Virus record (IMG/VR): IMGVR_UViG_2529292920_000011
Location: 1-12,932 of that record
Length of the DNA stretch: 12,932 nt
Origin: a virus
Taxonomy: Duplodnaviria; Heunggongvirae; Uroviricota; Caudoviricetes
Strand: one strand, 5' to 3'
Shown here in pieces: positions 1 through 12,932 of the stretch. The position numbers were made by a program, and so were the translations under genes. Position 1 is the first letter of the stretch. Every line of letters starts with the position of its first letter. Below the pieces are notes generated by a model. The model was not told the origin of the DNA and searched no databases. It was given only the letters and a program-made list of their open reading frames with translations.

Positions 1-11
1 GTTTGGGGGAA
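1..11. other. Partial invertase crossover site 1 (right half only; centre dinucleotide lies 1-2 nt upstream of the window)
   Basis: Window opens with GTTTGGGGGAA, the reverse complement of the left half of site 3 (TTCCCCCAAACC) minus one base. It sits at the 5' boundary of cassette A, as sites 2-5 sit at the other cassette boundaries. Confidence 0.5.
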
Positions 12-536
12 GGCTCTGCACTGCCCGTTGGTGTACCTGTTCCGTGGCCCTCAGCCACTCCACCAACGGGCTGGCTGAAATGCAACGGCGCAGCATTTTC
101 TTCTGAAGATTACCCCAAATTGGCACAGGCTTACCCCGCGAACAAATTACCGGATCTACGGGGTGAATTTATCCGTGGCTGGGATGATGGACGTGGCTTG
201 GATGCTGGGCGTGCCTTGCTAAGTCTTCAGGATGACTCTTTTGAAGCGCACAGGCATGAGTCCTTTTTTTATGCGGGTATTTCACGTAATGAGACCCCAT
301 TAAAAAATCTTCCAAGTTCAGACGAGATGCTGACTTTAAGTTCCACAACTAATGCCTTGTCCCCGGACAGTATTGATGCCACCAACTCGTTAATTGGTAA
401 TGACGATTACAACTGTCTTATCGAAGGGAATAAAAATAACAAACGAACAGCGACAGGACTGAGTACCAGTATTGTCGGCACAGCAGAAACACGCCCCCGC
501 AACGTTGCATTCAATTACATCGTAAGAGCTGCATGA
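3..536 (+). CDS. Tail-fibre C-terminal receptor-binding cassette A (tail-collar type), 5'-partial; the constant N-terminal part of the fibre gene must lie upstream of the window
   Basis: Frame is open from the window edge, so the 'M' in the track is an internal TTG (Leu). Conserved N-terminal block GEGSALPVGVPVPWPSATPPTGWLKCNGAAFSSE..LPDLRGEFIRGWDDGRG, an HxH motif (HRHES) and the C-terminal ETRPRNVAFNYIVRAA are shared with the other cassettes. Motif pattern matches phage tail-collar / MdpB-like fibre tips. Confidence 0.8.
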   Translation: MGEGSALPVGVPVPWPSATPPTGWLKCNGAAFSSEDYPKLAQAYPANKLPDLRGEFIRGWDDGRGLDAGRALLSLQDDSFEAHRHESFFYAGISRNETPLKNLPSSDEMLTLSSTTNALSPDSIDATNSLIGNDDYNCLIEGNKNNKRTATGLSTSIVGTAETRPRNVAFNYIVRAA

Positions 537-555
537 AAACGTTGGTTTAGGGGAA
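530..555. other. Crossover site 2 (gix/hix-like, 12+2+12)
   Basis: TGCATGAAAACG-TT-GGTTTAGGGGAA. The AAAAC..GTTT core resembles Gin/Hin sites (AAACC-NN-GGTTT). Overlaps the TGA stop of cassette A and begins the conserved leader of cassette B. Site 4 is its exact reverse complement. Confidence 0.6.
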
Positions 556-576
556 GGCTCTGCACTGCCCGTTGGT

Positions 577-1023
577 GTGCCCGTTCCGTGGCCCTTAGCA
601 ACACCACCAACGGGCTGGCTGAAATGTAACGGTGCAGCATTTTCTTCTGAAATGTACCCCAATCTGGCAAAAGCCTACCCCACCAATAAATTACCGGATT
701 TACGGGGCGAATTTATTCGTGGCTGGGATGATGGGCGAGGAATTGATGCAGCACGCGCTTTATTGAGCATTCAAACCGGGATGTTGGAAAAACACCGCCA
801 TATTGTTGTAGCTAACGATGGATATGACACAAAGGATGAATGGGAGTTGGCCACGATTTTCAAAAAAACATATACACAAGGCAGGGGGCTTGATGCCACA
901 AATACAGGAGGGAGTTTGATTCCATCACCAACGCTTCATTCACGAGGAAGTATTGGTAACACAGGTGGTAGTGAAACCCGCCCCCGCAATATTGCATTTA
1001 ACTATATCGTGAGGGCGGCTTAG
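577..1023 (+). CDS. Tail-fibre C-terminal cassette B (silent alternative cassette; frame is open from 526, through site 2)
   Basis: Same conserved N-terminal block (PVPWPLATPPTGWLKCNGAAFSSEMYP...LRGEFIRGWDDGRG), HxH (HRH) and C-terminal ETRPRNIAFNYIVRAA, with a different middle segment. No promoter or constant region is attached, so it is expressed only after rearrangement. Confidence 0.7.
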   Translation: MPVPWPLATPPTGWLKCNGAAFSSEMYPNLAKAYPTNKLPDLRGEFIRGWDDGRGIDAARALLSIQTGMLEKHRHIVVANDGYDTKDEWELATIFKKTYTQGRGLDATNTGGSLIPSPTLHSRGSIGNTGGSETRPRNIAFNYIVRAA

Positions 1024-1209
1024 TTATATTCAACTGGCTGCTGCCAGTGGTATTTCCGGCAAGTTGATATCTGGTGCCATGTTTATATCCATTGCGTTCA
1101 GCGCGTCTATATAATCCAGCACGGCGTTAAGCCGGGTGGTTTCTGCCTGCGTCAACTTCCGCCGGCCTGCAACTTCAACTGAATCAGACTTATGGAAGCC
1201 ATTGCCGCA

Positions 1210-1641
1210 TCAGCCAGTGACTGGCGCTTGGTTTCTGCCCGCTTCTACTGCGGCACTATGTTGTGCCTCAGTATCTGTCACCCATTTTTCACCATCCCAT
1301 TTATCGTATGGCGTCGACGGGGAGATAGTGGTTGTATTTTTCGGGTAGTCACCTAGCGTCGTGATTTCTTCGGTGTTTCCCGTGTCAGTGTTATAGACGG
1401 TTTCACCACGATGATCTGGCGTATACTCCCATGAATTTAAATTCTCCGAACGGCGGATAGCATAGCCCGCTTTATGTGCGCCCGGGGCATCTAAACAGGA
1501 ATTTGCCGGAATACCGACACCCGCAGCAAGATATTCAGTTGATTCGGAAATATATTCCCGTGTCTCACCATCATAGTTATAAACGACGATGTTTCCTGCC
1601 TGTACGGCAATAAGGTCATCATTTAATATCGCGTTATTCAT
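1210..1641 (-). CDS. Tail-fibre assembly chaperone (Tfa, lambda Tfa / Mu U family), N-terminal 143 codons ending at an in-frame TGA; probable pseudogene whose remnant extends to about 1030
   Basis: Recalled lambda Tfa pattern is matched (VYN.., G.PANS, W...DHRGETVY, Y.KW.G..WV.DTEA). Start ATG overlaps the stop of cassette C (TAATG coupling). Beyond the TGA at 1210-1212 the same frame still encodes a Tfa-like C-terminus (KLTQAETTRLNAVLDYIDALNAMDINMAPDINLPEIP) down to a stop at 1030-1032. Confidence 0.6.
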   Translation of the reverse strand: MNNAILNDDLIAVQAGNIVVYNYDGETREYISESTEYLAAGVGIPANSCLDAPGAHKAGYAIRRSENLNSWEYTPDHRGETVYNTDTGNTEEITTLGDYPKNTTTISPSTPYDKWDGEKWVTDTEAQHSAAVEAGRNQAPVTG

Positions 1642-2099
1642 TATGCGGTTCTCACAATATAATTGAAGGCAATATTGCGTGGGCGGGTTTCATTCCCCTC
1701 TGAGGATTCCGTTCTGTATTGACTGGTAAATCTACCGTTAATTGCACCTTGCCGGACGGCGTTATCTGTCGACAACAGACTATCCCCGCCTTTGTCATTT
1801 GGCACCAGTACCGTGTTATCCCACGCATCCCATGACCGAATATTATGATAATGACTTCCTGTTAACCACCCCTGCATGCTTAAGATGACCCTTCCGGCAT
1901 CCACCCCGCGCCCATCATCCCAGCCACGGATAAATTCACCGCGTAAGTCTGGTAATTTATTGGTGGGGTAAGCCATTGCCAGTCTGGGATACATTTCAGA
2001 AGAAAATGCTGCGCCGTTACATTTCAGCCACCCCGTTGGCGGCGTGGCTGAGGGCCATGGAACAGGTACACCAACGGGCAGTGCAGAGCCTTCCCCCAA
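1641..2099 (-). CDS. Tail-fibre C-terminal cassette C (the only cassette followed by a tfa gene)
   Basis: Conserved leader GEGSALPVGVPVPWPSATPPTGWLKCNGAAFSSEMYP..LRGEFIRGWDDGRG, HxH (HYH), C-terminal ETRPRNIAFNYIVRTA. The 'M' is an internal TTG; the frame opens inside site 3. Confidence 0.75.
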   Translation of the reverse strand: MGEGSALPVGVPVPWPSATPPTGWLKCNGAAFSSEMYPRLAMAYPTNKLPDLRGEFIRGWDDGRGVDAGRVILSMQGWLTGSHYHNIRSWDAWDNTVLVPNDKGGDSLLSTDNAVRQGAINGRFTSQYRTESSEGNETRPRNIAFNYIVRTA

Positions 2100-2116
2100 A
2101 CCAACGTTTTCATGCG
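2091..2116. other. Crossover site 3 (inverted relative to sites 1 and 2)
   Basis: TTCCCCCAAACC-AA-CGTTTTCATGCG. Central AA on the plus strand, against TT in site 2. Lies at the D/C cassette junction and overlaps the stop of cassette D. Confidence 0.6.
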
Positions 2117-2583
2117 GCTCTTACGATGTAATTAAATGCAACGTTGCGAGGGCGAGTTTCTGTACCTACATTTCCACTAATTTCACCAAACCGTTTTACA
2201 TTACGAGAGCTAATGGCTCGTAGTGAGGAAGGCACATTTAAACCGGGTTCGTCTGTTTTAACTATTCCCCCGTCCCCGTATGTAGCCAGTATTCCAGGGT
2301 CTACTCCTTCCCGTGTACTTCCCGCGGCAAGTCCACCCCCGGTCCATAATTCCATATAGTGTGCATGATCCAAAATTGTGTGTGGCTGCCAATTAAGCAG
2401 AGCGCGGCCAGCATCCACCCCGCGCCCATCATCCCAGCCGCGAATAAATTCGCCCCGTAAATCCGGTAATTTATTGGCGGGGTAGGCCTTTGCCAGATTG
2501 GGGTACATTTCAGAAGAAAATGCTGCACCGTTACATTTCAGCCAGCCCGTTGGCGGCGTGGCTGAAGGCCATGGAACGGGCAC
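2110..2583 (-). CDS. Tail-fibre C-terminal cassette D
   Basis: Conserved leader, HxH (HAH), C-terminal ETRPRNVAFNYIVRAA. Its first 63 residues are near-identical to cassette B, matching the inverted-repeat geometry. Confidence 0.75.
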   Translation of the reverse strand: MPVPWPSATPPTGWLKCNGAAFSSEMYPNLAKAYPANKLPDLRGEFIRGWDDGRGVDAGRALLNWQPHTILDHAHYMELWTGGGLAAGSTREGVDPGILATYGDGGIVKTDEPGLNVPSSLRAISSRNVKRFGEISGNVGTETRPRNVAFNYIVRAA

Positions 2584-2604
2584 ACCAACGGGCAGCGCCG
2601 AGCC

Positions 2605-2630
2605 TTCCCCTAAACCAACGTTTTCATGCA
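2605..2630. other. Crossover site 4
   Basis: TTCCCCTAAACC-AA-CGTTTTCATGCA, the exact reverse complement of site 2. Lies at the E/D cassette junction and overlaps the stop of cassette E. Confidence 0.6.
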
Positions 2631-3214
2631 GCTCTTACGATGTAATTGAATGCAACGTTGCGGGGGCGTGTTTCTGCTGTGCCGACAATACTGGTACTCA
2701 GTCCTGTCGCTGTTCGTTTGTTATTTTTATTCCCTTCGATAAGACAGTTGTAATCGTCATTACCAATTAACGAGTTGGTGGCATCAATACTGTCCGGGGA
2801 CAAGGCATTAGTTGTGGAACTTAAAGTCAGCATCTCGTCTGAACTTGGAAGATTTTTTAATGGGGTCTCATTACGTGAAATACCCGCATAAAAAAAGGAC
2901 TCATGCCTGTGCGCTTCAAAAGAGTCATCCTGAAGACTTAGCAAGGCACGCCCAGCATCCAAGCCACGTCCATCATCCCAGCCACGGATAAATTCACCCC
3001 GTAGATCCGGTAATTTGTTCGCGGGGTAAGCCTGTGCCAATTTGGGGTAATCTTCAGAAGAAAATGCTGCGCCGTTGCATTTCAGCCAGCCCGTTGGTGG
3101 AGTGGCTGAGGGCCACGGAACAGGCACACCAACGGGCAGTGCAGAGCCTTCTCCTAAACCAACGTTTTCGTCTTTATCCCTACCTATACCAACTATGTAT
3201 TTTTCACGAAACAA
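2624..3214 (-). CDS. Tail-fibre C-terminal cassette E (inverted duplicate of cassette A; silent here)
   Basis: Residues 20-196 are identical to cassette A. The frame opens only at 3226, immediately after a stop, so no constant fibre N-terminus is attached in this orientation. Confidence 0.75.
   Translation of the reverse strand: MFREKYIVGIGRDKDENVGLGEGSALPVGVPVPWPSATPPTGWLKCNGAAFSSEDYPKLAQAYPANKLPDLRGEFIRGWDDGRGLDAGRALLSLQDDSFEAHRHESFFYAGISRNETPLKNLPSSDEMLTLSSTTNALSPDSIDATNSLIGNDDYNCLIEGNKNNKRTATGLSTSIVGTAETRPRNVAFNYIVRAA
3149..3174. other. Crossover site 5 (outermost site, adjacent to the invertase gene)
   Basis: TTCTCCTAAACC-AA-CGTTTTCGTCTT. The inner half is conserved with sites 3 and 4; the outer half diverges, as expected for a site bordering non-invertible DNA. 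It lies 55 bp upstream of the invertase ATG, as gixR/cixR lie next to gin/cin. Confidence 0.6.
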
Positions 3215-3228
3215 AGAGGATGTTTTTT

Positions 3229-3828
3229 ATGCAAATTGGCTATATTCGTGTGTCAACAAATGACCAGAACACGGATTTACAACGCAATGCACTGAACTGC
3301 GCAGGATGTGAACTGATTTTTGAAGATAAAATCAGCGGAACGAAATCAGCCAGACCGGGATTGAAAAAACTGCTCAGAACGCTATCAGAAGGAGATACGC
3401 TGGTTGTCTGGAAGCTGGACAGACTGGGCAGAAGTATGAAACACCTGATCACGCTTATTGAGGAATTGCGGAAAAAAGGTGTTAATTTCCGTAGTCTGAC
3501 GGACAGCATTGACACATCAACACCCATGGGGCGTTTCTTTTTTCACGTCATGGGGGCTTTAGCCGAAATGGAACGTGAATTAATTGTAGAGCGTACACTG
3601 GCCGGGCTGGCAGCAGCACGCGCACAAGGACGCATTGGCGGACGTCGCCCGAAGTTGACAAAAGAACAACACGAGCAAATAGCGAGGCTGATTAAATACG
3701 GTCATGACAGGAAACAACTGGCGATCATTTACGACATCGGCATATCGACGATTTATCGTTATCACCCTGTAGGCGATATACAGGCTGAAGAAACAACCAG
3801 GCAGACTCAGGAAAATGAAAACCGCTAA
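3229..3828 (+). CDS. Site-specific DNA invertase, serine recombinase of the Gin/Pin/Hin/Cin family
   Basis: N-terminus MQIGYIRVSTNDQNTDLQRNAL with the catalytic Ser in the YIRVSTNDQ motif; central VVWKLDRLGRSMKHLI and GRFFFHVMGALAEMERELI; C-terminal HTH (GISTIYRY). AGAGGA Shine-Dalgarno 8 nt upstream of the ATG at 3229. The track ORF 3034-3828 is an upstream in-frame extension running through site 5 and is unlikely to be real. Confidence 0.93.
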   Translation: MQIGYIRVSTNDQNTDLQRNALNCAGCELIFEDKISGTKSARPGLKKLLRTLSEGDTLVVWKLDRLGRSMKHLITLIEELRKKGVNFRSLTDSIDTSTPMGRFFFHVMGALAEMERELIVERTLAGLAAARAQGRIGGRRPKLTKEQHEQIARLIKYGHDRKQLAIIYDIGISTIYRYHPVGDIQAEETTRQTQENENR

Positions 3829-3847
3829 TCTGACCATTAGCGGTTTT
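3818..3847. terminator. Bidirectional intrinsic terminator between the convergent invertase and gpU genes
   Basis: Perfect 12-bp stem AAAACCGCTAAT / ATTAGCGGTTTT with a 6-nt loop (CTGACC). The invertase TAA stop lies inside the stem. T-run on the plus strand; TTTTCATTTTCC follows on the minus strand. Confidence 0.6.
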
Positions 3848-3854
3848 GCGTTAA

Positions 3855-4349
3855 TCAAAACAGCCCTTTAACGGAGCTGGCCGCGCTGTTAAGAGATGAT
3901 GTCACCTTGTCTTTGAAGCCGGACAGCATATCACTGAACGATGAGGATTGCAGGCGCTCCCGCAAATCCTCATCACAGCGTTCAAGAGTCAGTGAAAATT
4001 CTATCTTTTTCGCCTTACCGTAGCGATCAAACTCGGAGCGGGTCGTATTCGTTTCAGTCAGTACATACATGCCGTAAATCTGCCCGACACCATCAATCAG
4101 AGGCCAGGGGCGTCCTGTATATGCCTGCGTGGTCAGCAGCGAAAGCGACACTTCGCCACCTGTAATTTCAGGATAAAGCACGCCAGAAAGCACGATGCGA
4201 TCATCACCTGCACCGATATACTGCCAGCTTGCTGAGCGGTTTACGCGCTCATTTTTCACATGCCGCCAGCTTTTGTTTTGCTGTAACTGCTGATGCGGCA
4301 ATGTGCGCAGCTCAAAAACAAACATGCCGTAGATCATCATCATGGCCAT
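3855..4349 (-). CDS. Tail protein gpU-like (P2 U family)
   Basis: 164-aa ORF directly downstream of the tape measure gene on the same strand, the usual gpU position. Contains WRHVKNERV and LSGVLYPEITGG segments that I recall from gpU proteins. True start may be an internal Met. Confidence 0.75.
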   Translation of the reverse strand: MAMMMIYGMFVFELRTLPHQQLQQNKSWRHVKNERVNRSASWQYIGAGDDRIVLSGVLYPEITGGEVSLSLLTTQAYTGRPWPLIDGVGQIYGMYVLTETNTTRSEFDRYGKAKKIEFSLTLERCDEDLRERLQSSSFSDMLSGFKDKVTSSLNSAASSVKGLF

Positions 4350-4355
4350 GACTCC

Positions 4356-7199
4356 TCAATCTTTATCGTAAAAACTGCCACGCCCGGCACGGGCGCGCCG
4401 TTCCATCTCTGCCCTGACCATTTCGCCGACCAGTTTCGCCAGTTCGCGGGGATTCTGTGTAACAACGTTATGCAGATGAACATGAATTTCACCACCAAAT
4501 CCGGAGGCAACAGGCTCCCGGTTACGGGAAGTTGCAGGAACTGATGCCACTGGCGATCGTATGGCCTCCGCCACCGGGCGGGAGCTGGCCGCAACAACAG
4601 GGACCAGCGCCGGAGGCAGCGGAGCCGGAACCACGGGTGTGATATTAATTGCGGGGGCAGGCTTACTGACCTGCGCAATCTTCCGCTCCTGCCACTCCCC
4701 ACGAACAGCAAGTGCGCGGGGCAGGTTCTTAAAGACAATATCGCCGGGGCCAATGCGTTTTTTCGTCTCATCAACCAGCTTACCTGTGTTATCAGCAATT
4801 TTGCTGAGTCTGCGTAGCGTGCCGGTATTGCTGTCTGTGAGCGGTTTGTTGTCTTTGGGGTTATCGCCTCCGGTGCCATTGCCATTTTCCACAGGCTTCG
4901 GCGGATTGATTTTCGCAATGTCTCCCTGAAACAGAGCAACCTTGTCCTGAAGAATGGCCGCACGCTGTGCGTCTTCGATTTTCTTTCTCGCCCTTTCCGC
5001 TTCATCCGGAAGCACACCGAGTTTTTCAAGTATCCACGCCAGCGTATCCAGCAACATTTTTGCAGGCGTCAGAACAAGCTGTAGCGCGCCACCAAGAACG
5101 TTACCGAATATCTCGCCAGCACTGGTACATTTATCCAGCGTTTCCTTGCTGGACTCCATCGGTGACAACAGCGATTTAAACCAGTTAAACACCTGGCTGA
5201 TCCCGCTTCCGATTGCGTCAAAAACAGGGCCAAACCGTTCAAAGGTTTCGCGCAACGGGGTCAGCCTTTCCATAATCCCGCTGAACACCCCGGCAAAAAA
5301 TGCCCTGATGGGATCCCAGTATTTCCAGATGAGAACGGCAGCTCCGGCAAGCGCAGCCACGATAAGACCGACCGGACTGAACAACGCCCCGATAGCGCCT
5401 CCCAGTAAAGAAACGGACCACGTCACCATTCCCCATAACGCAGGCAACACTCTGACAACATTCATTGACCGGGTAAGAATGTCGAAACCAAGACGCAGGG
5501 TGGCCAGCTTCCCGTAAAGCACCCCAATAACCAGTGACAACGAGCCAATCGTTGCAGTCATTGCCAGCAACGCACCGCCTGCTATCAGTAGCTGGCGCGT
5601 CAGTACCGGATGGGCCTGCGCCAGCGAGGTGATTTTTTCAAGCACCCGCGTGAACCACTGCGTGACAGAACGCAGCGGACCGTCAACCAGATCACTGATG
5701 CGAATACGAAGACCTTCCCATGCGCTGTCGAGATTTTTCAGGTCCCCATCAAGATTATCGGCCATTACTTTTGCGACGCGATCGGCCTCTCCCCTTGCCC
5801 CCTGCAATTCTCTGGTCAGTTTTTGCAGCTCTCCTGAACCAGCCGCCGCAACAAGCGTCTGCAAACCAACGAACGCCTCTTCTCCGGCGATGTCCTTGAA
5901 GAAGGAAACCTGGTCCACCTGTCCGTATTTTTGTGTCGCCTTATAGAGATCAAGCAGCACATCCTCCATCGGGCGCATTTTGCCTCTGGCGTCAGCAACT
6001 GACACTCCCAGCTCTTTCAGCGCATCAGCCGCAGCTTTTGGCGGTGATGCAAGGCGGGACAGACTTGCGCGCATGGCCGTACCAGCATCGCTTCCGCGAA
6101 GACCATTATTGGCAAGCATCCCGGCCATGGCCGCCGCTTCTTCAAGACTGATACCAAGTTTTGCGGCAACCGGACCGGTATACTTCATGGTTTCGCCCAG
6201 CGCGCGTAAATCAGTATTGGTCCGGGTGAATGCTGCTGTCAGCGTATCGCCAACCCGGTCCATTTGATCGGCTGTCAGGTTGAACTGTGTGAGGATATTG
6301 GAGCCTATATCAGCCGTCTCGCCGAGTTCGACGCCACCTGCCAGCGCCATATTAAGAACACCGGGCAATGCGGCCTGAATGGCCTGCGGAGTAAAACCAG
6401 CCATTGCCAGAAAGCTCTGCCCACTGGCGGCATCACTCGCAGTAAACTGTGTTTCAGAGCCAAGTTTTAACGCCTGCTCACGCAGCGCCTTAAACTGCGG
6501 GCTGTTTTTGTCGATTCGCGTCAGTGCCTGAACGCGGGACATCTCTTTGCCGAACCCGATCGCAGGCTGCAAAAAACGCCCGGCAGCATAGCCGCCCGCC
6601 GCTGCCGCACCAATTGCCAGCGCACCACCTGTTTTCAGTTTTCCCGCAGTTTCCTGCGCGCGCGAATACCGCTCACGCGCCCTCGTTACACGCGCAAGCG
6701 CCTGCCGTTCGCGTTCAAGCTGGTTGTTGTACTGTTCGGTGCGTCTGATGGCCTGCTGAATGGTGTTATCGCTGCCTGTCAGTGAAATGCCGTGGCGTTT
6801 CAGCTCTCCGCCAAGCTCCCGCATTTTCTGAATTTCCCGTGTGCGCGATTCATTCAGGCGTTCAAGCCGGGTGCTTAACTGCTGCATCAGCTTTTGTTGT
6901 TTTTCGCTGAGCACTGTACCCGTGCGTTGTAACTGATTAAGGGCGTTAAGCTGGCGTCGTGCTTTCACGATGCCCGCATCCGCTTTACTGACAGCGTCAC
7001 GGGCGCGCTCAAATGATCGCGCCTGACGCTCGAGATTTTTGATCGCCCCCTGCGTTCGCTGGATGGAGTCACCAAACTGCCCCATCAGGCGGCGGGCATT
7101 TTCGGCAGGCCGGGTCAGCCTGTCAACGGCGCTGAAAGCGACCCGGATATCAAGAGTCTTCATTGTCTGCATTCCCGCTGCGAAGTGCCGCCCGCTCAC
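4356..7199 (-). CDS. Tail tape measure protein (P2 gpT-like)
   Basis: Roughly 940-aa ORF with a coiled-coil N-terminal third, a Gly/Ala-rich central hydrophobic stretch (GALAIGAAAAGGYAAG) and a long helical/hydrophobic C-terminal half. Sits between the E/E' and U genes. True start is probably ATG 7172 (MQTMKTLDIR) or 7163, overlapping the E' stop. Confidence 0.9.
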   Translation of the reverse strand: MSGRHFAAGMQTMKTLDIRVAFSAVDRLTRPAENARRLMGQFGDSIQRTQGAIKNLERQARSFERARDAVSKADAGIVKARRQLNALNQLQRTGTVLSEKQQKLMQQLSTRLERLNESRTREIQKMRELGGELKRHGISLTGSDNTIQQAIRRTEQYNNQLERERQALARVTRARERYSRAQETAGKLKTGGALAIGAAAAGGYAAGRFLQPAIGFGKEMSRVQALTRIDKNSPQFKALREQALKLGSETQFTASDAASGQSFLAMAGFTPQAIQAALPGVLNMALAGGVELGETADIGSNILTQFNLTADQMDRVGDTLTAAFTRTNTDLRALGETMKYTGPVAAKLGISLEEAAAMAGMLANNGLRGSDAGTAMRASLSRLASPPKAAADALKELGVSVADARGKMRPMEDVLLDLYKATQKYGQVDQVSFFKDIAGEEAFVGLQTLVAAAGSGELQKLTRELQGARGEADRVAKVMADNLDGDLKNLDSAWEGLRIRISDLVDGPLRSVTQWFTRVLEKITSLAQAHPVLTRQLLIAGGALLAMTATIGSLSLVIGVLYGKLATLRLGFDILTRSMNVVRVLPALWGMVTWSVSLLGGAIGALFSPVGLIVAALAGAAVLIWKYWDPIRAFFAGVFSGIMERLTPLRETFERFGPVFDAIGSGISQVFNWFKSLLSPMESSKETLDKCTSAGEIFGNVLGGALQLVLTPAKMLLDTLAWILEKLGVLPDEAERARKKIEDAQRAAILQDKVALFQGDIAKINPPKPVENGNGTGGDNPKDNKPLTDSNTGTLRRLSKIADNTGKLVDETKKRIGPGDIVFKNLPRALAVRGEWQERKIAQVSKPAPAINITPVVPAPLPPALVPVVAASSRPVAEAIRSPVASVPATSRNREPVASGFGGEIHVHLHNVVTQNPRELAKLVGEMVRAEMERRARAGRGSFYDKD

Positions 7200-7416
7200 G
7201 CCAGCTAACCACTTCGCCGGGCGTCATCATGAAGATTTCGGCGGGCGACCAGTTAAAAATGGCGGCAATATCCGCCACCAGATCTTCGATGTGCTCAAAG
7301 CACACCAGGGTGATTACGCTGCCGTCTCCTGCACGCTCTTCGCGCCAGAGTCTGGCTCGCTCATAAAATTTACAGCCACAGCGCACAGCTGAATAAAATC
7401 GCGTGACGACATTTTT
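7150..7416 (-). CDS. E' extension frame (-1 relative to gpE); expressed only as an E+E' fusion by programmed -1 frameshift
   Basis: The -1 frame is open from 7416 to a stop at 7150-7152 and overlaps the 3' end of gpE (7314-7416). Slippery candidates lie in the overlap. Same arrangement as P2 E/E' and lambda G/GT. Confidence 0.6.
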   Translation of the reverse strand, partial: KNVVTRFYSAVRCGCKFYERARLWREERAGDGSVITLVCFEHIEDLVADIAAIFNWSPAEIFMMTPGEVVSWRERAALRSGNADNEDS

Positions 7417-7688
7417 TTAATCATCACTTCATCCAGTCGTGGCGAGGTCACGCGAGGCAACAGCGTAAACATGGTATCCGCTTTCAGATTCAGCACATCA
7501 GACAGCGACAGACCACGCAGGGATCCAGCCTGCTCAATAGCCCCGGTGATCTCCACATACGTGATTTTTTCGCCACCACGCTCAATTTGTCGGGTCAGTT
7601 TTACGCCACGTTCGACAGCCATATCCTCACCTGCCGTCACATCATCCGCCACGGTGTTATTCCGGGTTTCAGTATCGATGTCTTTCAT
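7314..7688 (-). CDS. Tail assembly chaperone gpE-like
   Basis: 124-aa ORF between the tube and tape measure genes. AGGAGA Shine-Dalgarno 6 nt upstream of the ATG at 7688. A -1 frame (E') overlaps its 3' end. Confidence 0.75.
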   Translation of the reverse strand: MKDIDTETRNNTVADDVTAGEDMAVERGVKLTRQIERGGEKITYVEITGAIEQAGSLRGLSLSDVLNLKADTMFTLLPRVTSPRLDEVMIKKMSSRDFIQLCAVAVNFMSEPDSGAKSVQETAA

Positions 7689-7743
7689 CAGTTGTCTCCT
7701 TTTCAGTCAGAGGCGACGCACTGCGCCGCCTGCATATTACTTA

Positions 7744-8256
7744 TCAGCCAAGCCCAAGCGCGGAACGGATACGGTCAGGCACAATGTCCTTGCCGTCCTT
7801 CCGGTAGATGTGGTTCAACAGGTCGATTTCCCACAGCGGGCGATCGTTAACGCTCAGCTTGTAGTAGGTGTTTTTGACAGCGTAAGTGTGTGATGTGGCT
7901 TCGCCCTGTTTGGCTTCCCCCATATCAATTTCCGTCACACGCCCGCGCATCTCGATTTCATACAGATCGCTTTCTGCATCGGTGTAGTATTCACCCGCAA
8001 AACGCAGCAGCGTGCCGTCAATCGTGCCGCCATATTTAAGGAACAGCGCACGAACAGCTCCCCCCATGACAAAACTCGCATCAAGCGCGGAGTCGTCCAG
8101 ACCGAGATCAATACTTACCGCCCCCATCATGCCACCCCCCCGGTAGCTGTCGGTTTTGCGCGTCAGTTTGGGCGGCGTGACGGATGTCACTTTACCCACT
8201 TCGTTTTCACCATCCACAAACAACGTAAAAAAGCGAAGATGTTTTGGTACAGCCAT
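7744..8256 (-). CDS. Tail tube protein (P2 FII-like)
   Basis: 170-aa ORF immediately downstream of the sheath gene, with a 1-nt stop/start overlap (TGATG). Size and position are typical of the FII tube family. Confidence 0.88.
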   Translation of the reverse strand: MAVPKHLRFFTLFVDGENEVGKVTSVTPPKLTRKTDSYRGGGMMGAVSIDLGLDDSALDASFVMGGAVRALFLKYGGTIDGTLLRFAGEYYTDAESDLYEIEMRGRVTEIDMGEAKQGEATSHTYAVKNTYYKLSVNDRPLWEIDLLNHIYRKDGKDIVPDRIRSALGLG

Positions 8257-9440
8257 CAGGCACCTCCCAGCACCGCAAATGCGGGACCAAAGAATTCATC
8301 AGTAAACGTCTGGTAAAGCTCCATGTCTTCCAGTGGCGGAACGGGCGTATATTTGTAGCGAATACGCACACGTCCCTGACGTAAATTCGTGGTGCCGTTA
8401 TCCACCACGTCATACCAGCACTCCGCGCCAATCAGTTTCCCGGCAGTAACCAGCGAATCCAGTTTTGCCCTGATGGCACTGATAACATCCTTCACGTTCG
8501 CAGGCGTCAGTGGACTGTCGATGGTTTCAAATTGCGCTTCCGCAATTGAATCAGCCAGCACCTGTGCGGCTCGGGTATACACCTCAAAGATGTAGGCGTT
8601 CGTTTCCGGTGTGCGGTTGCCCCAGAAGCGGAATCCGTTGCGACGAATAATGGTCGTGATTTCTTTGTTATTGAGGCTGTTGGCATCACTGTCTTCGGCC
8701 TGCAACGACCAGAACACATGCCTGGACATTCCCAGCACATTTTTAACCGGAACGTTGGACAGCGATTTGTGCCAGCCCTGCTCATGGTCAATGTACGCAC
8801 GAAGGCCGCACGCATAAGCAGGCGCGGGGAACGTTTCGTTTTTTCCACTTTTCGGGTTGTAGGCGATGAAGTCCGGCCATAAGAGCATCACCTCACGTTC
8901 GTTGAATTTCTGGCGGTAGGTAATCGCCTCAGCCATCGTGTTACAACCATGACATGTGGCATACACAAACGCGCGCAGTTTACCCGCAATCACGCACAGG
9001 GATTTCGTTACCGCCTCCGTGTCCAGCTCCGGCGCGGCCAGAATACGCGGACGGTATCCGATGCTTTCATCCTGCTCTGCAACAAGCAGCGCATACATCC
9101 CCGTATAGCTGCCGTCATCCTCAGAACCACCGATAACCAGTTGATCCTGCGTCTTACCGTCTTCTTCTTTGTGTTCAGCCACGCGAACGACGATCACCTT
9201 TGTGCTCACCTGGTCTGCGATGGCCTTAAGCGCACGATAAAGCGTCCCCGTTGTCCCGCATTTTCCCAGCACGTCATTGACGCGGGTCAGCAGTGTGGGC
9301 TTGTTCAGCGGGAACAGCTTCGCGTCCGCATCATCCGCCGTTGCCACGATACCGATAACGCTGGAATCAACATCGTTAATCGCTGTTACCAGGTCGGTAT
9401 TTTCCGTAACACGGGCACCATGAAAACGAGTTTCACTCAT
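8256..9440 (-). CDS. Contractile tail sheath protein (P2 FI-like)
   Basis: 394-aa ORF (MSETRFHGARVTENTDLVTAINDVDSSVIG...) of the size and position expected for a P2-type sheath, first gene of the sheath-tube-E-T-U block. Confidence 0.9.
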   Translation of the reverse strand: MSETRFHGARVTENTDLVTAINDVDSSVIGIVATADDADAKLFPLNKPTLLTRVNDVLGKCGTTGTLYRALKAIADQVSTKVIVVRVAEHKEEDGKTQDQLVIGGSEDDGSYTGMYALLVAEQDESIGYRPRILAAPELDTEAVTKSLCVIAGKLRAFVYATCHGCNTMAEAITYRQKFNEREVMLLWPDFIAYNPKSGKNETFPAPAYACGLRAYIDHEQGWHKSLSNVPVKNVLGMSRHVFWSLQAEDSDANSLNNKEITTIIRRNGFRFWGNRTPETNAYIFEVYTRAAQVLADSIAEAQFETIDSPLTPANVKDVISAIRAKLDSLVTAGKLIGAECWYDVVDNGTTNLRQGRVRIRYKYTPVPPLEDMELYQTFTDEFFGPAFAVLGGA

Positions 9441-9597
9441 AGCTTCAGCCCCTTGTATCCGTTAAATGATTCGGCAACAATCATCACCCACCACGCGCGT
9501 AATCTCACCCCTGCGCCGTTCTCCCGCCACGGCGACAACAAAAAGCAGTCCCCCCCTCCGCACGCACATGCGACCATGCCGCACAGGGAGGGAACAG

Positions 9598-10338
9598 ATG
9601 ACCGACACCACCATGCAATTGCTCAGTCAGGGCACAGACCCCGTAAAAATGCCGGATTTTGATATTCTCGCGGAGGGGAAAAGGCTGTCCGGCGTGGCAG
9701 AGCGCCTGATGAGTCTGTCACTGACCGACAACCGGGGATTTGAAGCAGACCAGCTCACCATCACGCTGGATGATGCGGATGGTCAGTTGCAGCTACCGCC
9801 ACGGGGCGCGCGTCTGACGGTTCTCATTGGCTGGAAAGGCGAACCGCTGACAGAAAAAGGTTCTTACATTGTTGATGAAATCGCACACGAAGGACCGCCG
9901 GACAGGCTGACGGTTTCAGCCAGAAGCGCAGATTTTCGGGATGAATTTAACGTTAAACGTGAGGTGTCCTGGCATGATGTGACCGTTGAGCGTGTGGTAT
10001 CCGCCATCGCTCATCGGTACGGCCTGAAACCGCAAATCAGCGAAATGCTGATGGATATCGAAATCGACCACGCCGACCAGACCGAAGAAAGCGACATGTC
10101 CTTCCTTACGCGCATGGCGGAAATGCTGGGCGCAATCACCACGGTAAAAAGCGGTAATCTGTTATTCATCATGCCAGGCGGTGGCGTGAACGCACAGGGC
10201 CAGCCGTTGCCATCGTTCGCCATCACACGCAGCAGCGGCGATCGCCATCAGTTCCGCATTGCTGACCGCGAGGCGTATACGGGGGTACGCGCCTACTGGC
10301 TTGATCTTAATTACGGGAAAAAGAAAAAGTCAGCGTGA
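9598..10338 (+). CDS. gpD-like tail protein (P2 late control gene D family), N-terminal 246 codons, ended prematurely by a frame change
   Basis: ATG at 9598 preceded by GGGAGGG (the track start 9466 is an upstream extension). Sequence ...LTVLIGWKGEPL...LTVSARSADFRDEF...SFLTRMAEMLGA...YTGVRAYWLDLNYGKKKKSA* stops inside an A-rich tract. Confidence 0.75.
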   Translation: MTDTTMQLLSQGTDPVKMPDFDILAEGKRLSGVAERLMSLSLTDNRGFEADQLTITLDDADGQLQLPPRGARLTVLIGWKGEPLTEKGSYIVDEIAHEGPPDRLTVSARSADFRDEFNVKREVSWHDVTVERVVSAIAHRYGLKPQISEMLMDIEIDHADQTEESDMSFLTRMAEMLGAITTVKSGNLLFIMPGGGVNAQGQPLPSFAITRSSGDRHQFRIADREAYTGVRAYWLDLNYGKKKKSA

Positions 10339-10706
10339 AACGCCGCAAACCGCCCAAGCTCAAAAAGGAGAAAAGCAGCAGCCGTGAAGGTGATTATATG
10401 GAAGGCGCGGAAGGCAATGTTTTTGTGTTACGCAAGACTTATCAGAACGAGCAGGCAGCAAGACGCGCAGCGGCGGCAAAGTGGCAGCAGCTACAACGCG
10501 GAGCCGCATCATTCTCCATCACGCTGGCGCGTGGACGTGCAGAACTCTACCCCGAAATGCATGGCACGGTAACAGGATTTAAAAGCGAGATTGATAATCA
10601 GGACTGGATTATTGCAAAAGCCGAGCACACCATTGATAACAGCGGCTTTACCACACAGCTTGAGCTTGAAGCAAAAATCCCGGAATGGATAGCAGAAACA
10701 GAATAA
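10335..10706 (+). CDS. gpD-like tail protein, C-terminal part in the -1 frame (frame open from 10311)
   Basis: ...AAAKWQQLQRGAASFSITLARGRAELYPEMHGTVTGFKSEID...GFTTQLELEAKIPEWIAETE is the continuation of a single gpD. Together the two parts give about 370 aa, the normal gpD size. Confidence 0.7.
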   Translation: MKRRKPPKLKKEKSSSREGDYMEGAEGNVFVLRKTYQNEQAARRAAAAKWQQLQRGAASFSITLARGRAELYPEMHGTVTGFKSEIDNQDWIIAKAEHTIDNSGFTTQLELEAKIPEWIAETE

Positions 10707-10834
10707 ATCTCTTAAAAATATTATTTTTGAGATGTGCTTCTACACTGACAGTAAGAACAAAAGATAATGTATCAGCCCACTAGATGTCAGAGGTTGGGGC
10801 ATCAACCAGATGCTAACAATAATACGGATGTTTT

Positions 10835-10864
10835 TCCCACATGACAGAGGAAGTCAAGTATAAT
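10835..10864 (+). promoter_or_regulatory. Candidate sigma70 promoter for the AT-rich island genes
   Basis: -35 ATGACA (10835-10840), 18-bp spacer, -10 TATAAT (10859-10864), about 90 bp upstream of the ATG at 10955. Found by eye only. Confidence 0.3.
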
Positions 10865-10954
10865 CTTCACAGTCCCTCCCGTCCAAGGGAATATGACTCA
10901 ATAGTAAAAGTTCCAGTTTAGTTAGTAGACCCACACTTTATAGAAGAGTAAATC

Positions 10955-11902
10955 ATGATTGGACAATTTTTAAGTGCAACAGAGATTTTAGCAAAGAACT
11001 ATGTTCGTAATAAAATGGTTAAAAATCCATTTTATTCGAATTTAAAATGGAATTTTGTTGAAAAAAACATCATAAGATTAACATCCTCACCGGTTAAATC
11101 AGTACTTTGCATATCAGCTTTTTCATTTGTACTACTTTATGTTGGATATTTAAACGAATTATTTATAAAAAAGAATCTTTTACATTATTTCCCGTTTAGG
11201 CATTCATTAACCGAATGGCAAACAACCATTTTAAGTGGCCAATTGACAATTATTGGTATTGTATACCCCCTTGTTATAGGTTTAGTAAGTGTCTTATTCC
11301 AAAAAAAAGCAGATAGAAAAATAGCCCAAACTGCTTATCAGCGTTACTCAGGATTCATGCTTGCTGGACTCAGCGGGCTTTTCTTATCAGGATTTATACT
11401 TCTCAGTGTACTAATTAAAACTGTCTTTGGAAGTTATCTTTATGGTATAGCCTGTCTAATCAGCATATTATGGCTTTTGATAAACATAGTTCTTTCTATT
11501 TGGTTCTTTATCGTGAGCCTTGAAATTCTTGATGATGTAAAACGGCAAATAATTATAAAGCGATACATTGCCTTCGAAATAGTAATGCCCCATATTTGTA
11601 ACAAAATCTCAGCCAATCTTAGGTTATACCCTATCTATCAAAAACATAACTATTCAAATTTAGAAATCAAGCAAGCCGATTACAAAGGAGAATACATATC
11701 TGTGGCTAGCAGTTATTCTAAGGAAGATGAGTTAAGTTTATATCACCGTCCTTTTCAACTTATTCTTAATCTTATTAATTACCAACTAAAAAAAAGAATC
11801 ATTTTGCGTCATTTGTCATTGGTGATAATCGTGCAAAAGAAACAGAATCCACGGGTAAGATACTTTTTAGCGTTAAAAATATCAAACCAGACAGCTTATT
11901 AA
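10955..11902 (+). CDS. Multi-pass membrane protein of unknown function (4-5 predicted TM helices), first part of a probable larger gene
   Basis: 315-codon open frame in about 30% GC DNA, where stops are frequent. Hydrophobic segments: VLCISAFSFVLLYVGYL, LTIIGIVYPLVIGLVSVLF, GFMLAGLSGLFLSGFILLSVLI, YLYGIACLISILWLLINIVLSIWFFIVSL. No family recognised. Confidence 0.65.
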   Translation: MIGQFLSATEILAKNYVRNKMVKNPFYSNLKWNFVEKNIIRLTSSPVKSVLCISAFSFVLLYVGYLNELFIKKNLLHYFPFRHSLTEWQTTILSGQLTIIGIVYPLVIGLVSVLFQKKADRKIAQTAYQRYSGFMLAGLSGLFLSGFILLSVLIKTVFGSYLYGIACLISILWLLINIVLSIWFFIVSLEILDDVKRQIIIKRYIAFEIVMPHICNKISANLRLYPIYQKHNYSNLEIKQADYKGEYISVASSYSKEDELSLYHRPFQLILNLINYQLKKRIILRHLSLVIIVQKKQNPRVRYFLALKISNQTAY

Positions 11903-12932
11903 TAAAAATACTTAAGCAATGTTTTTATAGGGCTCCGATTAAAGGAGGAGATTTTTCCGTAAGTCTTACAATGCAGGCTATAACAGCAGATACGTATATG
12001 TATCTGCGGGATTCTGATCTCTTTAGTTTTGACGATGCTATCTCTGCATTAATTAATAACTTTAATAATCTCTGCGATTTGTATTTTTTTCAAGATGACA
12101 ATACCAACAATAATTTCTTACTGATCACTACAGAATTATTTGAACGGAGTTTTCAATATGAGTTTTCAGATGAAGTTTATAAAATATCAAATAATTCCAT
12201 GGATAAAATTAATCTTTCTGAAAGATTTTTTGAATTATGTCTTTGGAGCGGAGTGCGTATTCTTAATAATAGAAAACATCTTATCAGCAATGAACTTTGT
12301 ATCTATATGGGAATTACTCGTTCACAATGGTCAATATTAACAGAATGGTTCCGAAACAACCAATCACTCTTAAATGCCTCGCTTCGTTCACGTTATAATC
12401 GTATATTAAGAACCTATGCCACTGTTTGGGAGCAATATCAAGAAAGCATCAACTTTCGTTTCTGCAATACAGAGAATTCAGATTTATTTGAATTATTTTG
12501 CAAAACGCAACTACAAGAACTTCCATCGATCATTATTGATGCAACACAGACTCGCGATCCTTCTACTATTGATACAGCCGTCGATCTTATTAACCGATGG
12601 CAGCACTCAATGAATATTGACAGCCATTCGGTAGAAAAATACAGTTACCAAGGCCAGCTTTTTAACCCGGGTTTTTTCATCTCCAAAAAACTAAACTTCA
12701 ATTCAGACAGAGAGTGGTTCAATATTGCCATCATAAATGCGTTGACTGACATGCGTATATGCACATGTCTTTATCTGACATCAAGAATCAATACTTCTGA
12801 CAAACTAATGACACATTACATTAAACTTATTTTAGAGGGTAAACTTATTGACCAAACCGGTGGATATGAAACTCCCACTGAAGAAATTGATAATGCAAGC
12901 CAACTAATCAAGATATTAGTTAGAATCTGCCT
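11779..12932 (+). CDS. Long ORF of unknown function, 3'-partial (runs off the window); probable continuation of the membrane-protein gene in the -1 frame
   Basis: I translated this frame by hand; it has no stop from 11779 to the window end (about 384 codons) in AT-rich DNA. First ATG is at 11971; AGGAGG at 11944-11949 is too far from it to be a convincing RBS. It is not in the ORF track, presumably because it has no stop in the window. Confidence 0.6.

Follow-up and report, generated by a model that had tools for sequence, protein, structure and literature searches.

Min, the multiple-inversion system of plasmid p15B and P1-like phage-plasmids, was reportedly described by Iida in 1990 and by Sandmeier, Iida and Arber in 1992. 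Min of p15B has six crossover sites and can adopt 240 isomers. The shufflon of R64 has the pilus adhesin PilV as its target; its recombinase, Rci, is a tyrosine enzyme that acts on sfx sites of 19 bp. The subject of this report is the tail-fibre locus at positions 1–3828 of the virus record IMGVR_UViG_2529292920_000011 (Caudoviricetes), a stretch of DNA that was analysed at its full length (hereafter the window) and is the entire draft contig AIEZ01000017.1 (12,932 bp; assembly GCA_000249135.2). This region is very probably (probability about 0.85) the invertible host-range module of a P2-like Escherichia coli prophage with a P88/Xuanwuvirus-type backbone, organised as a Min-type multiple-inversion system. 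A preliminary description of the sequence had proposed a multiple-inversion fibre switch resembling Min of p15B, in which a Gin/Pin-family invertase acts on gix/pix-like sites, and the anatomy, the domains, the sites, and the inversion seen in homologues all agree with that proposal.

Inversion in close relatives of this locus has been followed in sequencing data. In the P2-like prophage of enteropathogenic E. coli (EPEC) E2348/69, which has three sites, four coexisting variants carrying three alternative C-termini were found by sequencing and polymerase chain reaction (Goldberg et al., 2014; PMC4272514). For prophage Phi2 of EC958, PacBio reads reveal tail-fibre switching at the level of single reads (Forde et al., 2014; PMC4134206), and in an Enterobacter phage a three-isoform fibre shufflon with gin has been studied together with its locked variants (PMC13418256).

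The anatomy of the present locus, its domain content, and the identity and orientation of its sites can be read directly from the window. Cassettes A (1–536; type T4, 178 amino acids from the GLGEG head) and B (544–1023; type T1, 159 amino acids) lie on the plus strand, and cassettes C (1641–2102; type T2, 153 amino acids), D (2110–2616; type T3, 168 amino acids), and E (2624–3160; type T4, a duplicate of A) lie on the minus strand. The Pfam domain Collar (PF07484) was matched in each of the five, with E-values of about 1e-14 (1.9e-14 for cassette A), and among the structures in the PDB they match the fibre tips gp37 and gp12 of T4 in their collar regions. The conserved leader and the conserved tail (ETRPRN[VI]AFNYIVR[AT]A) that had been noticed earlier around variable middles are present in all five, the common head reading GLGEGSALPVGVPVPWP..., and every cassette opens with the right half-site GGTTT[A/G]GG[A/G]GAA in one reading register relative to the core of the site. 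The preliminary description had counted five alternative tips, and up to five receptor specificities, in a system more complex than the two-state switches. Five collar-domain cassettes in a multi-site array are indeed present, but A and E are the same cassette, and there are therefore four distinct tips and four specificities, not five. It had also stated that only cassette A is joined to the constant part of the fibre upstream, which is not observable here, as the constant region lies off the contig; in the complete genome of a related locus (L001) a T4-type cassette is fused to the constant part, whereas in another (L002) a cassette of this type stands second, behind another cassette.

Each crossover site consists of a 2-bp core flanked by imperfectly inverted half-sites of 12 bp. 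Site s2 (530–555, plus orientation; core 542–543) reads TGCATGAAAACG TT GGTTTAGGGGAA, and the TGA stop codon of cassette A (534–536) lies within it. The other three complete sites are in the minus orientation: s3 (2091–2116; core 2103–2104) reads TTCCCCCAAACC AA CGTTTTCATGCG on the plus strand; s4 (2605–2630; core 2617–2618) is the exact reverse complement of s2, with AA on the plus strand; and s5 (3149–3174; core 3161–3162) reads TTCTCCTAAACC AA CGTTTTCGTCTT, its outer half, on the invertase side, being non-coding. The fifth site, s1, is represented by its right half only (1–11, plus orientation; GTTTGGGGGAA, 11 of the 12 nucleotides (nt) of the half-site), because the contig starts one base past the s1 core and all sequence to the left of s1, including the core TT and the left half, is outside the window. 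The full equivalent of s1 in L001, TTCTTGATTACC TT GGTTTGGGGGAA, stands where the constant region meets the cassette. One fibre locus thus holds more than two sites in both orientations (four complete and one half; two plus and three minus), and the array may hold more than five. The earlier statements that a 26-bp site sits at every junction, five in all, and that sites 1 and 2 have TT and sites 3–5 have AA at the centre in two mutually inverted groups, hold for the four complete sites (TT in s2; AA in s3, s4, and s5), whereas s1 is cut by the contig end and its TT lies beyond the window.

Chance does not account for these sites, since 0.00 matches to the 26-mer are expected (200 shuffles). 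A TT core was found in 133 of 133 sites of the family, a figure to be read with the fact that the search pattern itself contained TT. The e14 pix sites (CTCTCGAAAACC TT GGTTTGGGAGAA and TTCTCCCAAACC AA CGTTTATGAAAA) are the closest to those of the window, with the same core and a near-identical cassette-side half, and s5 aligns in register with D108 gixR at an equal distance from the invertase start, so that the kinship with gix and pix expected from the preliminary description is borne out on both counts.

The invertase gene (3229–3828, plus strand) encodes a serine DNA invertase of 199 amino acids with the domains Resolvase (PF00239; E-value 6.7e-52) and HTH_7 (PF02796), and its ATG is 67 bp from the s5 core. 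In phmmer the Gin structures 4m6f and 3uj3 aligned with the protein over its whole length (E-value 1.5e-90); Ser9, in the motif RVSTNDQ, is aligned to the Ala position of the 3uj3 chain, and the wild-type Met is present where the 4m6f Gin chain has Val. Identity to D108 Gin is 75.4% by tblastn and 70.6% by global alignment, and global alignment gives 81.5% for PinE of e14, 80.5% for the P88 invertase, and 94.7% for the invertase of a P1-like phage-plasmid (L092). The domains, the 67-bp spacing, and Ser9 all fit the Gin/Pin-family invertase with an intact catalytic Ser that had been placed directly outside site 5. This serine recombinase is the sole recombinase in the window, which sets the locus apart from the R64 shufflon with its tyrosine recombinase Rci and sfx sites; the likeness to R64 is that multiple inversions among several sites choose the C-terminus of a receptor-recognition protein.

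The 5′ coding region of the invertase gene probably contains a Fis-dependent recombinational enhancer (putative, 3250–3313, not assigned to a strand), to judge from its two G-N13-C boxes, GTGTCAACAAATGAC (3250–3264) and GCGCAGGATGTGAAC (3299–3313). Conservation of both boxes extends to D108 gin and P1 cin, with equal spacing and no gap between them, and their position presumably corresponds to that of the Fis sites in the enhancers of hin, gin, and cin. As a strict Fis consensus scan was uninformative alone, it was replaced by this comparison with gin and cin and by a test of synonymous variation in 60 distinct invertase genes from related loci. In that test the two-box geometry (codon offsets 8–10) had the lowest synonymous codon entropy, ranking 1–3 of 157 offsets (0.35–0.45 versus a gene mean of 0.94), which indicates a second constraint on those bases. 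The Fis sites that the preliminary description had expected in this part of the gene are represented by two boxes conserved with gin and cin, and as Fis sites they are putative. In our own alignment the invertase residues corresponding to Hin Gln151, Arg154, and Leu155, which contact Fis (PMC3798978), are Q, R, and L, in the motif EQIARL.

These features suggest how the switch would operate. The constant 5′ part of the fibre would lie on another contig and end in ...DYL, the last two bases of the Leu codon being the TT core; in relatives the junction reads GAT TAC CTT/GGT TTG GGG GAA (D Y L/G L G E), and an in-frame fusion is seen in L001, L002, L003, and L006. To the left of s1 one would accordingly expect ...GATTACCTT if the constant region precedes cassette A and ...CATGAAAACGTT if another cassette does. 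The invertase would bind the sites and exchange strands at the AA/TT core between any plus and any minus site, and would probably be activated by Fis bound to the enhancer. Because all heads share one register relative to the core, any head placed at the constant part would be in frame, and a new head in that position would give a fibre with a different collar-domain tip. The left half-site within the array is GCATGAAAACG and contains the TGA stop of the preceding cassette; since such a stop lies in each internal left half-site, only the first cassette would be translated as fibre. With five sites each of the five heads could reach the constant part, resulting in four fibre proteins, and the one gene for the generic Tfa chaperone, being central in the array, would flip with it. 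By analogy with its relatives the array would invert in this strain also, and we infer likewise the dependence on Fis, the receptor specificity of each tip, and the expression of tfa when it is antisense to the fibre operon.

The clearest case of inversion among the related loci is that of EPEC E2348/69 (L006), in which the constant part is followed by cassette type T6, then T1, tfa, T2, and the invertase; it shares with the window the types of cassettes B and C, tfa, and the invertase. In an independent assembly (L013), the 1998-bp segment between two cores is inverted, so that the two are exact isomers that switch at the core dinucleotide: the segment is 99.95% identical in the inverted orientation versus 56% in the direct orientation, and the flanks are 100% identical. 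More widely, every common cassette type in the related loci sampled occurs behind left half-sites of the constant-region, cassette-end, and invertase-side classes, the break falling at the core. EC958 Phi2 has collar cassettes together with the two site types found in the sample of relatives.

A breadth-first search over the allowed inversions gave 4, 48, and 240 isomers for three, five, and six sites, respectively. The value for six sites agrees with the 240 isomers of Min given above, and that for three agrees with the published EPEC count. The five sites of the window would thus permit 48 isomers; if these are equally likely, the duplicated tip is shown in half of them, because A and E are the same cassette, whereas D is shown in a quarter and each of B and C in an eighth.

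Among the described systems, Min has the same general design, with a Din-family serine invertase, more than two 26-bp sites in both orientations, and alternative 3′ fibre segments. A P1-like plasmid of 92 kb (L092) carries 13 cassettes from the same pool as those of the window. Unlike Min of p15B, the window locus is chromosomal, in a P2-like prophage beside ihfA, and has five visible sites versus the six of Min. The EPEC E2348/69 shufflon shares with the window the backbone, the invertase family, the type of site, and a central unit consisting of the B type, tfa, and the C type, but it has three sites and three tips, whereas here the sites number at least five, the distinct tips are four, and one cassette is duplicated. 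EC958 Phi2 likewise has a constant 5′ fibre part fused to an invertible 3′ Tail Collar part and 26-bp sites (...ACC TT GGTTTAGGAGAA and ...AACG TT GGTTTGGGGGAA), but with two sites it is a two-state switch. The P segment of e14, served by PinE, also differs in having two sites, and in having its own tfa for each tip. With the G segment of Mu and D108 and with P88, the window shares the position of the invertase relative to the outer site and the conserved enhancer boxes, and with P88 also the backbone; these systems have two states only, the gix core in D108 and P88 is GA where that of the window is AA, and in Mu and P88 each variable part has one chaperone gene.

Loci of this family are abundant. 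Of 5,426 complete E. coli genomes, 2,444 match positions 1–4400 of the window, many of them only in part, and 228 plasmids, mostly of about 95 kb and non-mobilizable, match the region at 87–90% identity. The sampled relatives have 2–8 cassettes per array and the 92-kb plasmid has 13, and about 50 cassette types were counted. Public E. coli prophages and plasmids often carry systems of 5–13 cassettes, so that this locus does not stand out; larger Min-type or P2-like prophage shufflons exist, and as an example of its kind it is in no way unusual. Current understanding is unchanged by it, since multiple-inversion fibre switches of this family have already been described and shown experimentally. 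What it would illustrate is a compact form of combinatorial host-range programming, in which at least five sites, 48 isomers, and four tips are combined and the stop codon of one cassette is built into the next site, and in which one pool of cassettes is common to chromosomal P2-like prophages and P1-like phage-plasmids. Its practical value concerns annotation and assembly, given that such arrays break draft assemblies at the core, that silent cassettes are annotated as "phage tail proteins", and that duplicated cassettes can be either real or artefactual.

Silent cassette E can be read from 2624 to 3214 (minus strand) as an open reading frame (ORF) of 196 amino acids, with a TTG start at 3214 in the spacer before the invertase gene. 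In RefSeq, ORFs equivalent to E and to every other silent cassette are annotated as separate "phage tail protein" genes, and silent-cassette ORFs have been flagged as an annotation problem (Forde et al., 2014; PMC4134206).

Several points weigh against the interpretation as an active host-range switch. The strain is represented by a single contig, and the constant region and the s1 core lie off it. In this assembly tfa is interrupted and gpD carries a frameshift; were these changes genuine, no infective particles would form and the switch could not affect host range. Half of the computed isomers have tfa antisense to the fibre operon, and no tfa promoter appeared in a scan of positions 1–4000. 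Short exact repeats are a further possible cause of contig breaks at the core, one that needs no heterogeneity in the population. In this connection, 4 of 38 related draft contigs (the window, L030, L075, and L077) begin 0–2 nt from the core, and several others have their first base within the conserved head of a cassette. Contigs would break at the recombination point if the sequenced culture contained mixed isomers, or else because of the short exact repeats at the heads.

The duplication of cassette A as cassette E raises the question of assembly most directly. Window positions 36–560 are the exact reverse complement of 2600–3124, and the only differences between the two cassettes are at positions 5, 8, and 35, in the head or leader. 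One explanation is that the strain has one copy only and that reads from two coexisting isomers were threaded into the contig, in which case the real array would consist of four cassettes. The 100% identity of the two copies over 525 nt is consistent with such an artefact, as are a contig end only 1 nt from the crossover core and an assembly with 454-like homopolymer errors, and Forde et al. (2014; PMC4134206) warn that contigs built from alternative isomers can duplicate parts of phage regions artefactually. We nevertheless consider this explanation unlikely. All three differences lie on that side of the core which belongs to the cassette, and site-specific exchange can neither create nor alter differences there; moreover, the 64-nt head of A is the usual head of the T4 type in three other contigs. 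An identical second copy, with one of the pair adjoining the invertase, is also present in L001, which was deposited as a complete genome, in plasmid L092, and in L012 and L075; in both L001 and L092 the pattern of the pair is that of the window, with one copy beside the invertase and the second in the plus orientation. Because the head differences lie on the cassette side of the core and the head of A is usual for its type, we think that the duplication is real, and the single-copy reading was rated less likely. Unequal homologous exchange between conserved heads and tails, followed by inversion, would yield such a duplication.

In three independent replicons the same type occurs twice, at 1–560 and 2600–3160 in the window, at 6000–6536 and 8588–9124 in L001, and at 4000–4536 and 7057–7593 in L092. 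In each of these pairs one copy is beside the invertase in the minus orientation, the bodies are identical, and any differences are in the head only.

The tfa gene (1030–1641, minus strand), which encodes the tail-fibre assembly chaperone, had no place in the preliminary account. It lies downstream of cassette C, cassette B converges on its 3′ end, and it is the sole tfa of the array. Its reading frame is broken by an additional G at 1240 and a missing G at 1164, 76 nt apart, which give rise to an in-frame TGA at 1210–1212, and PF02413 was matched on both pieces. In gpD and in an ORF that has 1039 amino acids in a 99.9% identical relative, one A is missing from an A run in comparison with that relative. 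There are thus four single-base differences in the length of G or A runs (window positions 1164, 1240, 10323, and 11787), which disrupt tfa, gpD, and the 1039-amino-acid ORF. Taken at face value, the internal stop in tfa and the two frameshifts would mean that the prophage is defective and the module a fossil, whose DNA may still flip but which has no host-range function. This is quite improbable. All four changes have the typical signature of sequencing errors, and all other genes are intact, among them the invertase, every cassette, and the tail genes from FI to U, as are all of the sites. With four homopolymer-length changes in 12.9 kb, sequencing error is favoured over decay, and the frame breaks in tfa, gpD, and the 1039-amino-acid ORF are probably homopolymer errors of the draft assembly.

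A single central tfa is a general property of these arrays, being found in 21 of 23 related loci with 2–13 cassettes, whatever the number of cassettes, and in 13 of 13 loci tfa comes next after a cassette of the C type (T2). This generic chaperone may recognise the conserved tail of the cassettes. Where an isomer places tfa antisense to the fibre operon, the gene points towards the convergent tail operon (FI to U) on the far side of the invertase. The array might on this basis be more than a specificity switch: the choice of cassette could at the same time turn fibre maturation on or off or set its dosage, or read-through from the opposite late operon could supply tfa; separately, a recurrent second copy beside the invertase could bias the population towards a default tip, which 50% of isomers would show. 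These extensions are speculative and rather doubtful.

Rearrangement could in principle depend mainly on RecA, through homologous recombination between the long inverted repeats of the locus (220–759 nt), instead of on the invertase. Inverted repeats of 759 nt at 97% identity, and of 230–290 nt at about 85%, are present. The isomers L006 and L013, though, switch exactly at the core dinucleotide, and cassette types occur after left half-sites of each of the three classes, the core marking the break; moreover, the inversions of homologues have been assigned to the 26-bp sites in publications (Goldberg et al., 2014; Forde et al., 2014; PMC4272514, PMC4134206). It is therefore very unlikely that RecA is the main agent, and site-specific inversion by the invertase is the preferred mechanism. 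Homologous exchange may add to the process and explain mosaic leaders and the duplications of cassettes.

A service to the host in the lysogen, in which an inversion product or a free collar-domain protein masks the receptor and blocks other phages, is suggested by the related e14 P segment, where PinQ and StfE2 are reported to act in receptor masking or phage blocking (PMC12529663), and by the possible TTG start of cassette E (2624–3214), but it is highly improbable for this locus, which has the standard layout of a virion fibre module, with no pointer to such a function in the sequence and no promoter in the scan of positions 1–4000.

The remainder of the window is consistent with a P2-like prophage. 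Judged by its sequence, the backbone is of the P88/Xuanwuvirus type found in E. coli: the block of invertase, gpU, and tape-measure genes is 87–89% identical to that of P88-like phages, and window positions 9400–12932 are 99.9% identical to the prophage adjoining ihfA in E. coli RIVM_C040348 (L089). The fibre module, with the invertase, has the plus strand as its strand, the tail genes gpU to FI (3855–9440) are on the minus strand, and gpD is on the plus strand. A large inversion or a misassembly relative to P2, which the minus-strand operon gpU–FI facing gpD might suggest, was rejected, as this is the standard layout of P88-like prophages and is also found in many complete E. coli genomes. 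A terminator-like hairpin (3818–3847, not assigned to a strand) lies between the convergent invertase gene and gpU; the scan of positions 1–4000 for promoters and terminators gave no excess over chance apart from this hairpin past the invertase gene.

The corresponding region of L089 (8936–12374) has neither an invertase nor a cassette array, and instead encodes a fibre of 911 amino acids with its own tfa and a tfa remnant. The entire host-range module has therefore been swapped between prophages that are otherwise 98–99.9% identical.

The 1039-amino-acid ORF mentioned above is AT-rich, with a G+C fraction of 0.33 versus about 0.5 elsewhere. It lies between gpD and ogr and occupies positions 10955–12932 (plus strand), running off the contig end, and is intact at 1039 amino acids in the 99.9% identical relative L089 (19557–22676). 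Pfam and PADLOC searches with it gave no match, and on visual inspection its N-terminus seems hydrophobic. Possibly it is an uncharacterised gene for cargo or defence functions, carried in a slot whose content varies among P2-like phages.

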